From NCBI GenBank assembly GCA_014816185.1, contig GCA_014816185.1_4095.1: a stretch of DNA of 64,000 bases; one strand, 5' to 3'. The number at the start of each line of letters is the position of its first letter. Positions within the stretch are counted from its first letter, which is position 1. This document shows positions 28,524 to 38,346 of the stretch, piece by piece. A program made the translations under genes and the position numbers. Source of the stretch: a phage. A model generated the notes under the pieces. The model had not been told where the DNA came from and ran no database searches. It saw nothing but the letters and a program-made list of their open reading frames with translations.

Positions 28524-28862
28524 ATGGAACAATATTTTGAATTAATAAACAAAGTATCATTTTATGTAGTATCTTTGGTTTGGGTGTATTATATGTTTTG
28601 CTATATTATTGCATTCTTCCGATATACTACTTTATATGAACGTATCTACTATGATGCCCCAATTTCATTCTTGATGTTTTGTGCATGTACGTGGGGAATA
28701 TTAGAAGTACTGATATGTGGGTATAGTACTGATGAATTAAATCTGGTATCGGTGTTGACTGGGTTTTCATTTGTTGTTATGATAGCTGCCGTTCCAGTAT
28801 GGTTGTTCTTTGGACTAGTTCATCGCATTGATATATGGCGTTCTAATATCCCTGAAAAGTAA
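28524..28862 (+). CDS. small 3-TM membrane protein, family M
   Basis: About 112 aa, three hydrophobic segments, basic C-terminus RSNIPEK. Confidence 0.6.
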   Translation: MEQYFELINKVSFYVVSLVWVYYMFCYIIAFFRYTTLYERIYYDAPISFLMFCACTWGILEVLICGYSTDELNLVSVLTGFSFVVMIAAVPVWLFFGLVHRIDIWRSNIPEK

Positions 28863-28871
28863 GGATTGGTA

Positions 28872-29213
28872 ATGATTTATTACACTAACATGTTTGCCTA
28901 TGCTGTTGCTTGCATTTACATTGTGTACTTCTTATTCGGTGGAGTACTGTGCTTCTTTAAGTACAAAACGTTGTTCAACCGAATGTACCCAAATCATCCA
29001 ATTGTAGTTGTACTTTTGATTCTTTCAGTTTCTCAAATAATCGTTGAAACTACAATGGGTATCAGTAGTGTACATTATAGTTTTGGCACTATAGTAATTA
29101 TTACTATGCTTATTGCATACATTTTAGTACTTGGATATGGTATCTTTGGTAATATTGGTATGAAAATGTATCATCGAATTAAAACATTACGTGATAATCT
29201 ACCGGAGCGTTGA
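28872..29213 (+). CDS. small 3-TM membrane protein, family M
   Basis: ATG after AAGGA; C-terminus RDNLPER. Confidence 0.55.
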   Translation: MIYYTNMFAYAVACIYIVYFLFGGVLCFFKYKTLFNRMYPNHPIVVVLLILSVSQIIVETTMGISSVHYSFGTIVIITMLIAYILVLGYGIFGNIGMKMYHRIKTLRDNLPER

Positions 29214-29214
29214 T

Positions 29215-29559
29215 ATGTATAATTTGAACCTAATCTCATATATTATAACAACACTGTTTACATTCTATGCCTTTGTTGGTATAATCCTACTGTACTTTAA
29301 ATTTTATAAAGTGTTTAACCGTTTCTATCCTTCAATGGAGAATGAGTTTTTCTTTGTGTTGTACGTAGGTTACACATTAATGGCTACATGTTTCACTGTA
29401 GCCGATGGTGTCATCGGCATTAAAACTGATTCCCCAAATGGTAGTACGCTGGTTGCATTTATTCTTACTGGATTCCTTGCAACTTATATTGCCTTCATTA
29501 CAACATGGTCAGTGGTTGAATTTCTCTTGCGACTACGAAAGAATATGCCGAATCGATAG
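29215..29559 (+). CDS. small 3-TM membrane protein, family M
   Basis: ATG after GGAG; C-terminus RKNMPNR. Confidence 0.55.
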   Translation: MYNLNLISYIITTLFTFYAFVGIILLYFKFYKVFNRFYPSMENEFFFVLYVGYTLMATCFTVADGVIGIKTDSPNGSTLVAFILTGFLATYIAFITTWSVVEFLLRLRKNMPNR

Positions 29560-29568
29560 GAGACATAT

Positions 29569-29823
29569 ATGTTTGCGTTGCGTAATAAAAACACTAAAGA
29601 ATTATTATGTATTGATACCGTATGGGATTGTGCGGGTTCAACTACAGTTCTTGAAGAAGGAACTGGATATTGCGTGTTTGTTGTACATGATAGGAATGAA
29701 CTCGAATTATTACTTGCTGAGTTCAATGCTGGTGGTAATCCTAACAGTACTGAATACCCTGAGATTATCAATCCAGCACCTCCAGGTTCATATGAAATCC
29801 TACCACTATGGGTGTTGAAATAA
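29569..29823 (+). CDS. hypothetical protein
   Basis: SD AGGAGA. Confidence 0.55.
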   Translation: MFALRNKNTKELLCIDTVWDCAGSTTVLEEGTGYCVFVVHDRNELELLLAEFNAGGNPNSTEYPEIINPAPPGSYEILPLWVLK

Positions 29824-30203
29824 TGCGACAAATGTACAAAGTAACCGAGCTAAACAAGCGTCTGGTTAAACAATCTATGTTTGAGGATAAAGAGTCTTAC
29901 TATAACTTTAAACGTGCTGTAGAGGCTGCTATCCACATTCAGAAGCTTAAAGAACGTGGTTGTATTATTCTGGAAAATGGTTCGGAAGTTGTAACGGATG
30001 ACTTTAGTGTAGCGTTTGATGTTTCACCTGATGGGACGCTATCAATGCCCCGCTTAGGAACTGGAAACATGACTGTTTGGGTTGGCTTCACTATGGGGAA
30101 TGTACCTGGTACTGTGTACGTAGATGATGCGGAATTGAAAGACAGTTTCAAAAACTTATCTTATCTTGAACCACAATACGCACATGAAATGAATTTATTT
30201 TGA
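29823..30203 (+). CDS. hypothetical protein
   Basis: TAATG overlap start (MRQMYK). Confidence 0.5.
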   Translation: MRQMYKVTELNKRLVKQSMFEDKESYYNFKRAVEAAIHIQKLKERGCIILENGSEVVTDDFSVAFDVSPDGTLSMPRLGTGNMTVWVGFTMGNVPGTVYVDDAELKDSFKNLSYLEPQYAHEMNLF

Positions 30204-30204
30204 G

Positions 30205-35907: not shown

Positions 35908-36245
35908 TGTTAGAATTTTTTAAATCAGATACAATGATTAGTATTACTTTGATTTATCTGTTTGGTTTTTTCTTTTATCATGCACTAGTTGTAGTACTAT
36001 GGTATTTTAAAAAGAAAATTGTTTTTAAACTGTATCCAGTGAGGAATTCATCACTAGTTCTTTACACACTTGTTCAAGGTTTGTTTGCAATTGTTGGTCT
36101 TATGGCACACTTAATTTATTGTGCCAATCCTCACTTGAACTCAATCTCACAATATATTGTATTCTTTGGGTTGTTCATTTGGTTAGTTGTATACTTAATC
36201 CATCTCATTATTCATGGTAGAGATAAAATTCGCGGAGACTTCTAA
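35907..36245 (+). CDS. small 3-TM membrane protein, family M
   Basis: TAATG overlap; MLEFFKSDTM N-terminus nearly identical to previous copy. Confidence 0.55.
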   Translation: MLEFFKSDTMISITLIYLFGFFFYHALVVVLWYFKKKIVFKLYPVRNSSLVLYTLVQGLFAIVGLMAHLIYCANPHLNSISQYIVFFGLFIWLVVYLIHLIIHGRDKIRGDF

Positions 36246-36592
36246 TGTTTGAAGCTTATCTTGAGTTTTTAAGGAGTAGTCCAGTTGCACATTCACTTGC
36301 AGGGATTATTCTAACAACTTATGTATCATTTTGGGTAGTTATGTTTCTAGGATGGTATTTTAAACGACAATTCTATAAACGTAATGGTGAAGATTTTATG
36401 AATTCTGTCATTAATCAATCGTTGTTTGCATCAACATTGATTGCATGTATTGTAGCAACACTCACAGGAAAGGTACTACCAGCTTTTTCCGCAGTTTACG
36501 GCACACTTGGGATGATATGTTTAACTTTTATATTGACCATTAAAATTTGTTGTGTTATGATTGAACTTCGAAATAAGATACCGGAGGAATGA
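36245..36592 (+). CDS. small 3-TM membrane protein, family M
   Basis: TAATG overlap; C-terminus RNKIPEE. Confidence 0.55.
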   Translation: MFEAYLEFLRSSPVAHSLAGIILTTYVSFWVVMFLGWYFKRQFYKRNGEDFMNSVINQSLFASTLIACIVATLTGKVLPAFSAVYGTLGMICLTFILTIKICCVMIELRNKIPEE

Positions 36593-36927
36593 TGGAGTAC
36601 TTTATTGATTTACTGCCGTGGTATATGAAAGTTAGTACCATGTACTATATTATTAGTGCTGGATTCTACTTTCTGATGTGGTTCTTTAAACGACCAATTT
36701 CAGTATTCATCGCTGATAACATGTTGCAATTAAAATTACACGCATGGTTTGGTATGGCGATGATTATGCCTATTATTCACTACTCAATGATTAGTAGAGG
36801 TTTCCGTTCTAATGGTGAACCAATTGTATTAGTATTCTATTGGGGTTCAACTATTGCATATGTAAGTTTGTTGTTGTTCCCAGTCGTTCATAAGTTACGT
36901 GCTAAAGTTCCTGATGCGAGGTACTAA
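36589..36927 (+). CDS. small 3-TM membrane protein, family M
   Basis: ATGA overlap. Confidence 0.55.
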   Translation: MMEYFIDLLPWYMKVSTMYYIISAGFYFLMWFFKRPISVFIADNMLQLKLHAWFGMAMIMPIIHYSMISRGFRSNGEPIVLVFYWGSTIAYVSLLLFPVVHKLRAKVPDARY

Positions 36928-37241
36928 TGGATATAGTAACATTGATTTACACGTTGTATTCATTCTATTTCATTATGTGTTGGGTTGGATTTTTATTTGT
37001 ACTCAAGATGTTTGATTATGTTGAAAAACAGATAAAAGAATTTTGTATTCCTTTTATCGGTTCAACCATTATTAGTGTTTCTTGTGTGTATTTTTTGGTT
37101 TTTGATCCACCAGATAACACTGCAATGATTGACTTGATGTTACTACCAACAACTGTTACTTTTTTATGTAGTCTGATGCCGCCGATTAGCCGTGGGCTAA
37201 CCGAATTTAGACGCAATCAAAAGCGTAAACGAGGGATGTAA
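36927..37241 (+). CDS. small membrane protein, family M
   Basis: TAATG overlap; basic C-terminus. Confidence 0.55.
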   Translation: MDIVTLIYTLYSFYFIMCWVGFLFVLKMFDYVEKQIKEFCIPFIGSTIISVSCVYFLVFDPPDNTAMIDLMLLPTTVTFLCSLMPPISRGLTEFRRNQKRKRGM

Positions 37242-37609
37242 TGGAAATTGCTCTTATTATCTTAACTGCTATGCTGTTTATTAGTACTGTGGTTATAATT
37301 GGTAAATTCTTTTGTGTATCATTTTTAGAAACGGTATACGATGAAATTGCTGATGATTATGAATTACAAGCCGGATTTTTCATTACGTATTGGCTTAGTT
37401 TATTTTGTCTAGTCATTGCTTGGATTTTACATATCTTTAAATGGGGTATGGTAGACGGTGATCCTATTATGGCAATTATTGTTCTAGTGTTTGGTATCCT
37501 TGGTGGTGCAGTGCATAATCTAATGGTTATCTGGCAAACTGTTCAATATGTTTTGGTTCCCTATTTCGAAAAGATGCACAGTACAATTAAAAAACGTAAA
37601 CGAGGTTAG
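37241..37609 (+). CDS. small membrane protein, family M
   Basis: TAATG overlap. Confidence 0.55.
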   Translation: MEIALIILTAMLFISTVVIIGKFFCVSFLETVYDEIADDYELQAGFFITYWLSLFCLVIAWILHIFKWGMVDGDPIMAIIVLVFGILGGAVHNLMVIWQTVQYVLVPYFEKMHSTIKKRKRG

Positions 37610-37610
37610 T

Positions 37611-37973
37611 ATGAACGGGATAGAATTATCTTTCGTTGGTCAATTACTAGTAATGGCGTATACATTTATCTTCTCACTGAATGCATTCGTGTGCATTGGG
37701 AAGTACTTCCATAAGCGACCATTATCAAATATATATGATGTAATCCAAAAGAGATATAGTCCAGCATATACTGTGTTGGGTACAGTATTCAATTTTGGTT
37801 TTATTGTATTAATAATTGGACTGTTCACATCCTCTTTGAATACAATAACCTTCGGTCTTATGATATGTTCATTGGTATTAGCCGTAATTATATGTTGTTT
37901 AGTACTACACCTTGTGATACTATTATATATAAAGATCTCTGAAATCCACCAACGTTTGGGTATGAGGAAATAA
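37611..37973 (+). CDS. small membrane protein, family M
   Basis: Start moved to ATG after GAGGT (MNGIELSF). Confidence 0.5.
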   Translation: MNGIELSFVGQLLVMAYTFIFSLNAFVCIGKYFHKRPLSNIYDVIQKRYSPAYTVLGTVFNFGFIVLIIGLFTSSLNTITFGLMICSLVLAVIICCLVLHLVILLYIKISEIHQRLGMRK

Positions 37974-37974
37974 T

Positions 37975-38346
37975 ATGAGTTACCGTGAGATATTTTCCAT
38001 TATTTCAATTATTATGTTCAGTACTGGAACACTGGTATGGTTATTATATTTCTTCTGTATTAATCCAGTGTATAATATGTTATGTAATATTAAATCAAGT
38101 GCCGGATATATCACTTTTATGGTCTTTATGGGATATTATTGTCTAAGCATTTTAGGTGTTGTTTTGGTTGTTATATTTGATGTGGGGCCAAATAGTGATG
38201 GTATGGAAATACATGAATTAATAACCATGTTTGGATGTATGATACCAACAGCACTACTGTTTGTAGCTACTGGTAGTGGATTGATAAAATTATATAATTA
38301 TTTAAAATCCATTCATAATTCCATTCATAATAAGCGTATGTCATAA
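37975..38346 (+). CDS. small membrane protein, family M
   Basis: Last member of the cluster. Confidence 0.55.
   Translation: MSYREIFSIISIIMFSTGTLVWLLYFFCINPVYNMLCNIKSSAGYITFMVFMGYYCLSILGVVLVVIFDVGPNSDGMEIHELITMFGCMIPTALLFVATGSGLIKLYNYLKSIHNSIHNKRMS

Follow-up and report, generated by a model that had tools for sequence, protein, structure and literature searches.

A 64,000-nucleotide stretch of phage DNA (NCBI GenBank assembly GCA_014816185.1, contig GCA_014816185.1_4095.1), referred to here at its full length as the window, carries eleven small genes in two arrays, whose products are predicted membrane proteins with three transmembrane (TM) segments. Judged by profile comparisons and shared motifs, all eleven are members of one divergent superfamily of common ancestry, and both arrays are apparently expressed early in infection from host-type promoters. 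The reading favoured here, tentatively, is that they are early inner-membrane conflict proteins with a role resembling superinfection exclusion.

Large phages are well known to carry arrays of small accessory membrane proteins, and they have hundreds of small early genes, many of which are thought to decide phage-host or phage-phage conflicts. Singly, the genes already have database entries: GenBank lists their products as hypothetical or 'putative membrane' proteins, and PHROGs spread them over several families of unknown function. What is new here is their unification, their motifs and topology, their early-cassette context and the pattern of allelic classes among related phages.

The eleven genes and their reality

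By megablast, positions 28000-39000 are 98.5% identical over their full length to Escherichia phages vB_EcoM_G17 (G17) and Sharanji, and the same segment is matched by many other Asteriusvirus genomes of 320-386 kb. To judge by its sequence, the source phage is an Asteriusvirus, a Rak2-like jumbo coliphage. The list of open reading frames (ORFs) places the genes in two clusters on the + strand, three adjacent genes at 28524-29559 and eight at 35566-38346. An earlier note on this DNA had proposed eleven small genes; all of these ORFs are present with the outer coordinates it gave, and the G17 record holds a separate coding sequence for each, annotated as a hypothetical protein, these being equal to 121Q gp207-209 and gp224-232. 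Four of the internal starts in the note did not stand: on the position of the Shine-Dalgarno (SD) site and the G17 calls, they were shifted downstream to 28872 (g2), 29215 (g3), 35907 (g5) and 37611 (g10). A TTG start for g2 at 28866, taken from the same source, was rejected as too near the SD site, and g7 starts at either 36592 or 36589. With the four starts corrected, the proposed range of about 105-123 amino acids (aa) becomes 104-123 aa. The genes, with corrected lengths, are as follows; values for g1 include its match to famA, a family profile hidden Markov model (HMM) described below, and its ratio of nonsynonymous to synonymous substitution rates (dN/dS).

g1, 28524..28862, + strand: 112 aa, cluster 1, tail ...WRSNIPEK; phrog_19285 at 3.9e-59; famA HMM at 5.8e-31; dN/dS 0.18-0.20
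g2, 28872..29213, + strand: 113 aa, tail ...LRDNLPER; ATG start
g3, 29215..29559, + strand: 114 aa, tail ...LRKNMPNR; ATG 1 nt past the g2 stop
g4, 35566..35907, + strand: 113 aa; recent duplicate of g5 (51% identity); not in BF17-type phages
g5, 35907..36245, + strand: 112 aa; TAATG overlap with g4
g6, 36245..36592, + strand: 115 aa; 'hub' in profile comparisons; tail ...LRNKIPEE
g7, 36592..36927, + strand: 111 aa (112 from 36589); best conserved member across phages; tail ...LRAKVPDARY
g8, 36927..37241, + strand: 104 aa; tail ...FRRNQKRKRGM
g9, 37241..37609, + strand: 122 aa, subgroup B; GKFFCV after TM1; tail ...MHSTIKKRKRG; orthologue in Munch
g10, 37611..37973, + strand: 120 aa, subgroup B; GKYFHKRP; tail ...IHQRLGMRK
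g11, 37975..38346, + strand: 123 aa, subgroup B; YFFCINP; tail ...IHNSIHNKRMS

Compared with phages ph0011 and BF17 by the Nei-Gojobori method, all eleven genes have dN/dS values of 0.10-0.38, so they are coding genes under purifying selection rather than chance ORFs. Neighbouring genes gave 0.02-0.31 in the same comparison, the values of the membrane genes being somewhat higher; the proteins of the membrane genes evolve faster than those of the surrounding genes.

One divergent superfamily

Pairwise BLASTP links only g4 with g5 (51% identity, 1e-37), g1 with g2 (2e-9) and g2 with g3 (1e-5). Orthologues were gathered from G17, ph0011, BF17, A4, Turkey5 and Klebsiella phage Muenster into ten orthogroups (OGs), and all 45 orthogroup pairs were compared by hhalign, with the reversed target alignment, which keeps both composition and the three-TM pattern, as the control. 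Real pairs score up to 90 and reversed controls 9-19, with 26 of the 45 real pairs above 19. Links with hhalign probabilities of 72-99%, mostly over 90-108 aligned columns, connect all ten orthogroups:

Cluster-1 types: OG1-OG2 99%; OG1-OG3 98%; OG2-OG3 97%
Cluster 1 to cluster 2: OG1-OG6 94%; OG3-OG6 90%; OG2-OG45 82%
Cluster-2 types: OG45-OG6 72%; OG6-OG7 97%; OG6-OG8 92%; OG6-OG10 78%
Subgroup B: OG9-OG10 79%; OG9-OG11 87%

Two HMMs trained on complementary parts of the family recover each other's members when scanned against all window ORFs of at least 50 aa. The famA HMM, trained on the g1-g8 types only, matches g11 at 1e-7, g10 at 4e-5 and g9 at 7e-4, the next window ORF standing at 0.15; the famB HMM, trained on the g9-g11 types, matches g5 at 3e-6, g3 at 7e-4 and g4 at 6e-3, with the best non-member at 0.046. 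The paralogy that the earlier note had claimed, with alignment as its check, is thus real but mostly remote, emerging from hhalign scores against reversed controls, from the cross-trained HMMs and from the motifs.

Two motifs recur throughout the family. The first, at the end of TM1, reads W-[YF]-F-K-[RK], with K-F-F-C or Y-F-F-C in g9/g11 and K-Y-F-H in g10; its Phe is nearly invariant (>90% in both the 62-row alignment A1 and the 17-sequence alignment A3), and an aromatic-F-K/C feature at the predicted cytoplasmic end of TM1 is found in all eleven genes. The second lies in the tail and reads [LF]-[RH]-x-[KN]-[IL]-(P-[ED]), followed by basic or acidic residues; its Arg is invariant in alignment A3, which covers the g1-g8 types, and g9-g11 have His at the matching position. 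The N-P-E type of motif noticed earlier in several of the proteins corresponds to R-x-N/K-[ILM]-P-[EDN], found in g1, g2, g3, g6 and g7.

No further window ORF matches the family HMMs, other small membrane ORFs included. Small ORFs with two to four hydrophobic segments lie at 9755-10599, 19626-21080, 31062-31313 and 32586-32780, none of them a family match; the 83-aa ORF at 31062 is unusually conserved, at 95-98% across Asteriusviruses.

Predicted topology and fold

Three 19-residue segments of high Kyte-Doolittle hydropathy occur in each protein, weakest in g7. Over 59 family members, mean counts of Lys plus Arg are 0.42 for the N-terminus, 3.1 for loop 1, 0.46 for loop 2 and 4.49 for the C-tail, and in the tail acidic residues (Asp plus Glu) average 1.5 compared with 4.5 basic ones. 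Given the positive-inside rule, this distribution predicts an N-out/C-in orientation, in which both conserved motifs would face the cytoplasm. The hydropathy and the charge counts bear out the three TM segments and basic C-terminal tail proposed in the earlier note, and insertion of the three-TM proteins into the membrane would be expected from this predicted topology. In the Muenster record, TMHMM notes are given for eight array genes, five as three TM domains N-out/C-in, two as three TM domains N-in/C-out and one as two TM domains. An AlphaFold2 model of g6 (predicted local distance difference test, pLDDT, 74) shows three long helices preceded by an N-terminal one, with a further short helix in loop 1, and that of g11 (pLDDT 64) has three long helices at low confidence; as modelled, both are simple helical bundles. 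Within orthogroups, the least conserved parts are TM2, loop 2 and TM3, at 32-41% identity compared with 48-53% elsewhere.

Junctions and probable translational coupling

Both arrays are tightly packed and probably translationally coupled. Five of the nine intergenic junctions are 1-nt stop/start overlaps (TAATG four times, TGATG once), which makes the earlier statement that 'most' of the genes are linked by overlaps just true; three of the remainder are 1-nt spacers and one is a 9-nt spacer. All nine have GGAG, GAGG or AGGA 5-9 nt upstream of the downstream ATG. The SD site of each downstream gene falls inside the final four to five codons of the gene before it, that of the g1-g2 junction spanning the stop codon. 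The tight packing in the earlier description of 'translationally coupled clusters' is accordingly observed, and the coupling itself is graded probable from the overlaps, the 1-nt spacers and the SD sites.

28848-28871, 29199-29214, 35893-35906, 36231-36244, 36578-36591, 36913-36926, 37227-37240, 37595-37610 and 37959-37974, + strand: junction regions bearing the SD site in the coding end of the upstream gene

At these sites CCGGAGGA encodes Pro-Glu-Glu, CGCGGAGAC Arg-Gly-Asp and CGAGGG Arg-Gly. Because the SD sites lie within the last codons of the upstream genes, part of the C-terminal 'P-E-E / R-G-D / K-R-G' pattern is dual-coded as a ribosome-binding site. The Pro-Glu of g1 is encoded by CCT GAA, which holds no SD-type site, and there is a conserved Arg five to six residues before it, so the tail motif is also a feature at the protein level.

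Distribution and database matches

A profile search of 5.8 billion proteins returned 35 matches, all of 111-123 aa except for one 189-aa ORF, and several of these are on contigs of ~350 kb or carry Asteriusvirus names. When 1.84 billion cluster representatives were searched exhaustively with HMMER, only 21 matched at E <=0.001, nearly all of them full-length at 101-121 aa (two are shorter fragments), and each complete one has a version of both motifs. Seven representatives that were looked up come from metagenome assemblies, among them an 11-kb contig with two adjacent members. By tblastn against 50,697 phage records, the clusters occur only in Escherichia, Salmonella and Klebsiella jumbo phages, and the family matches with a traceable source all come from Rak2-like jumbo phages. 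In Salmonella phage Munch, the family HMMs find one member near the kinase gene (2.8e-11) and three to four after the NTPase gene, including one of g9 type (1.5e-14).

In PHROGs, ten of the genes fall into seven families (19285, 19454, 19046, 27396, 33258, 26405 and 27618, all of 'unknown function') with few and weak cross-matches, and g10 has only a weak match at 0.054. None of the eleven has a Pfam match above threshold. Sub-threshold Pfam matches to TRAP-gamma, DUF350, DUF443, SUR7, 7tm_3 and DUF2062 are mutually unrelated and far under the gathering scores, and were set aside as hydrophobic-composition noise. No significant match was found in NCBIfam, among PDB sequences, in PDB Foldseek or in PADLOC, the last giving one sub-threshold match at E = 0.26. 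BFVD returned a near-identical orthologue, together with a 'putative membrane protein' of phage CBB at a non-significant E = 3.2. The searched papers on Rak2-like and jumbo phages mention paralogues and membrane proteins in general terms only, and no paper describing this family was found among them.

Several records deserve comment in their own right. NCBI and UniRef label some family members as Escherichia coli proteins, and two of these lie on ~350-kb contigs; whole jumbo-phage genomes thus seem to have been deposited inside E. coli assemblies, through a carrier state or contamination. In phage CMSTMSU, whose record is flagged UNVERIFIED_ORG, the cassette is broken into many short ORFs, probably through sequencing or assembly error rather than decay, and this phage was excluded from the comparisons. 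The ph0011 record tags the NTPase, the g5 orthologue and another gene as 'Phi92_gp231', 'Phi92_gp233' and 'Phi92_gp234'; these labels were rejected as annotation artefacts, as the phi92 locus has proteins of 75 and 121 aa and no ORF matching the family HMMs.

Predicted transcription units and neighbouring genes

Each cluster is preceded by a composite element and by a further promoter-like site:

27473..27508 (copy at 27476), + strand: terminator/promoter element resembling the promoter early stem-loop (PeSL) of T4-like phages; predicted start of a unit with the kinase gene, a 93-aa gene and g1-g3
27537..28178, + strand: T7 gp0.7-like protein kinase, PHROG 15752; precedes cluster 1 within that predicted unit
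28175..28203, + strand: promoter-like site TTGACA-17-TATTCT, whose spacer contains a hairpin; precedes the 93-aa gene and g1-g3
34664..34699 (copy at 34667), + strand: PeSL-like terminator hairpin with a sigma-70-like early promoter (GGGTTGACTTCGGTCAGCCC-T5-GCTATAAT); a unit with the NTPase gene and g4-g11 is predicted to start here
34728..35498, + strand: AAA/P-loop NTPase, homologous to T4 NrdC.11; its gene opens the cluster-2 unit
35508..35536, + strand: second promoter-like site, TTGACA-17-TACTAT, whose spacer contains a hairpin; immediately precedes g4
38353..38376, + strand: hairpin after g11 (ATCCAGTACT-TAAT-AGTACTGGAT); G17 annotates a + strand terminator at the matching position (~38351-38372)
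21623, 24866, 25049, 26391, 27476, 31971, 33253 and 34667, + strand: the eight copies of the composite element

In the composite element, the stem of a terminator hairpin carries a TTGACT -35 box, which stands 18 nt before an extended -10 box. Its parts (GGGTTGACTTCGGTCAGCCC, T5 and GCTATAAT) occur together in eight + strand copies between 21.6 and 34.7 kb, and none is expected by chance. PeSLs, which in T4-like phages combine a terminator with an early promoter, bound hyperplastic regions and mediate modular shuffling (PMC4122927, PMC2839356). The hairpin after g11 lacks a T-run on the + strand, and a local scan scored its minus-strand orientation only. The T4-type late promoter core TATAAATA occurs twice in the 64 kb (24431 and 25080), compared with 13.6 expected from shuffles, and no copy lies within about 3 kb of either cluster; its rarity suggests that the motif is avoided in this mostly early region. 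The related phage CBB has a region of short genes in which RpoD-like promoters are concentrated; the authors interpret this region as serving early host takeover (PMC5259590).

The succession of NTPase gene and array is kept in Asteriusvirus, Alcyoneusvirus and Munch. NrdC.11-like NTPases occur in >1200 phage records, and a general link between NTPase and array was rejected: the T4-like phage phiR1-RT has an NrdC.11 homologue with no three-TM genes downstream and no HMM match, this being one T4-like locus.

Cassette variation between phages

Identity between the window and phage A4 falls at the membrane genes. The 184-aa protein, the 83-aa TM protein, the 123-aa protein, endonuclease V and the NTPase are 93-98% identical, compared with 26-67% for the membrane proteins, and the product of the 220-aa gene downstream is 19% identical. 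At the DNA level, homology to A4 reaches precisely as far as the NTPase stop (35500); from there to 41000 only a part within g7 is again homologous, and on the upstream side homology is regained at the 12-of-12 promoter at 30205. Some of the composite elements coincide with, or lie close to, points at which homology between related phages breaks off.

At least three deep allelic classes of the cassette exist in otherwise ~95% identical genomes. One class comprises the window, ph0011 and BF17, which share 73-80% identity (mean over five orthogroups). A4 and Turkey5 share only ~39% with this class, and the same with one another, which makes them nearly as distant as Muenster at 32%. The NTPase has two allelic classes among Asteriusviruses, either 96-97% or 58-59% identical to the window copy, and these assort independently of the cassette classes: in ph0011 the NTPase is 59% identical and the membrane proteins 72-88%, and in A4 the corresponding values are 96% and 26-67%. 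This independent assortment places a recombination point between the NTPase stop and g4.

Gene content varies as well. There are 11 copies in the window, G17, ph0011 and Turkey5, 10 in BF17, 8 in A4 and Muenster, and 4-5 in Munch. BF17-type phages have no g4, A4 has a single cluster-1 gene, Turkey5 has two g8 types and Muenster two g6 types. In divergent Asteriusviruses, seven types occur in the order OG45-6-7-8-9-10-11; the Muenster order is 6-6-45-7-8-9-11-x.

Two neighbours of the cassette are of interest in themselves. The 220-aa soluble protein encoded at 38389-39051 is as hypervariable as the membrane proteins (19-84% among Asteriusviruses) and has no Pfam match; it may belong to the same swapped block. 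On the minus strand, 39528-52476 holds a tandem array of eleven paralogous ORFs of 245-433 aa, annotated as RCC1-repeat or 'DNA condensation' proteins in related phages. This RCC1-type array is convergent to the membrane cassette and, as far as at least 41000, lacks DNA homology to A4.

Candidate functions

A role like that of superinfection exclusion is favoured because the predicted early timing and inner-membrane location, the accessory status and the deep allelic classes in near-identical genomes make up the pattern expected of a conflict interface. The eleven genes would encode lineage-specific small inner-membrane proteins with a periplasmic N-terminus and a basic cytoplasmic C-tail, made early from host-type promoters in a hyperplastic, recombination-prone part of the genome. 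Acting at the host cytoplasmic membrane, they would most likely block the genome entry of competing phages or another membrane step. The N-terminus, TM1, the WYFK[RK] motif and the LRxKIPE tail may form a common scaffold on the cytoplasmic face, and the variable TM2-loop2-TM3 hairpin may give each paralogue and each allelic class its target specificity. Of the functions suggested in the earlier note, inner-membrane exclusion or interference gains support from the promoters, the kinase and NTPase units, the lack of a nearby TATAAATA and the allelic divergence, and a holin-like function loses it through location, apparent early timing and copy number. Several points nevertheless weigh against exclusion. 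The proteins resemble no characterised protein in sequence or fold, Imm, Sp and Sie included, and have no match to Pfam Imm_superinfect (E up to 1) or to a PHROG so annotated (E up to 0.1). The motifs common to all paralogues face the predicted cytoplasmic side, but an incoming phage meets the periplasmic face first. Deep allelic classes could arise by cassette swapping without selection for exclusion specificity. Early timing is predicted from promoter motifs only, and the total of promoter-like motifs in the scan is no higher than in shuffled sequence. Finally, seven types kept in a nearly fixed order across genera, in tightly coupled genes, fit a multi-subunit assembly at least equally well.

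Much of the same evidence can be read in terms of the host. The paralogues might each bind, inhibit or redirect a host inner-membrane protein of its own, conditioning the cell or disarming its defences; transporters, respiratory or division components, proteases and membrane-bound abortive-infection or defence effectors are candidate targets. The predicted early units, the gp0.7-like host-takeover kinase in the g1-g3 unit and the inner-membrane topology agree with such a role, hypervariability among phages from different E. coli strains would fit strain-specific adaptation to defences, and seven anciently diverged, retained types fit seven targets. It is nonetheless rather unlikely, given that no similarity to known anti-defence or host-inhibitor proteins was found (in PADLOC, the sub-threshold match above) and that core E. 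coli membrane proteins are highly conserved, so that classes at ~39% identity are hard to explain unless the targets are accessory defence proteins. An improbable third account is a hetero-oligomeric inner-membrane assembly, such as a channel, translocase or anchoring platform, with the paralogues as subunits kept in fixed proportions through translational coupling, perhaps together with the upstream NTPase. The gene order, kept in divergent Asteriusviruses and nearly kept in Alcyoneusvirus, the five 1-nt overlaps and three 1-nt spacers with SD sites in upstream coding sequence, the NTPase-array synteny in three genera, the joint divergence of whole cassettes and the position of the common motifs on the cytoplasmic face, where an NTPase would dock, are all in its favour. 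Independent assortment of NTPase and cassette alleles, however, argues against tight co-adaptation, the NTPase is present in >1200 T4-like phage records, of which the one locus examined (phiR1-RT) has no array, cluster 1 stands apart from any NTPase, and the copy number ranges from 4 to 11. Less probable still is its specific form, in which the seven ancient types are not redundant blockers but subunits of a phage-built membrane machine, assembled early in infection and driven or organised by the NrdC.11-like AAA NTPase; if true, such a machine would have no described counterpart and would provide the first function for the widespread T4 NrdC.11 NTPase family. There is only a slight chance that the proteins are holins, antiholins or lysis-timing proteins. 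Their design is that of class I holins of the lambda S105 type (~105-125 aa, three TM helices, N-out/C-in, a charged basic tail). In RaK2 a canonical holin has not been identified, neither a T holin nor an RI antiholin being reported (PMC3622015), and the endolysin predicted for this phage group bears at its N-terminus a TM domain of signal-arrest-release type, whose release needs membrane depolarisation (PMC5259590). The genes are not in a lysis cassette, however: the predicted endolysin is 121Q gp532, distant in number from gp207-209 and gp224-232, and the neighbours here are a kinase, an AAA NTPase, endonuclease V and hypothetical genes. The promoters are sigma-70-like with no TATAAATA nearby (motifs only), there are eleven copies in two clusters, no Met-Lys-Met (Met-basic-Met) dual start is present (g7 has only Met-Met), no Pfam or PHROG holin family is matched, and a functional holin made early would kill the host too soon.

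The pattern of whole-cassette allelic classes makes the locus a good candidate for exclusion or compatibility determinants among the therapeutic jumbo coliphages of the 121Q, PBECO4 and G17 group, with relevance to the composition of cocktails, and the eleven genes make up a small clonable set for direct tests.

Comparison with known systems

The 'putative membrane protein, 3 TMDs' entries of Klebsiella phage Muenster and the seven PHROGs are the same proteins or their orthologues, whose membrane nature had already been noted singly. PHROGs, however, divide them among at least seven unrelated-looking families, whereas here they appear as one superfamily with motifs, topology and cassette variation.

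As in the PeSL regions of T4-like phages, variable blocks of small accessory genes are bounded by hairpin and promoter repeats, with breakpoints at these elements or at gene ends. The elements described here differ in having a distinct consensus (GGGTTGACTTCGGTCAGCCC-T5-GCTATAAT) and in occurring in a Rak2-like jumbo phage, and recombination is addressed here through breakpoint mapping only.

The likeness to class I holins lies in size, three TM helices, N-out/C-in orientation and a hydrophilic basic tail; the differences are the location outside a lysis cassette, the predicted early expression, the multiple copies, the lack of a dual start and the lack of a match to a holin family.

T4 Imm is a small, early, inner-membrane protein that blocks the DNA entry of superinfecting T-even phages. 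It has ~83 aa, two predicted TM segments and a single gene, in contrast to the eleven three-TM paralogues in two arrays found here. With Sp, it offers the closest functional analogy for the exclusion reading: both are small, accessory phage proteins produced early and active at the cell envelope, and the present family is likewise small and accessory, with early expression and a membrane location predicted.

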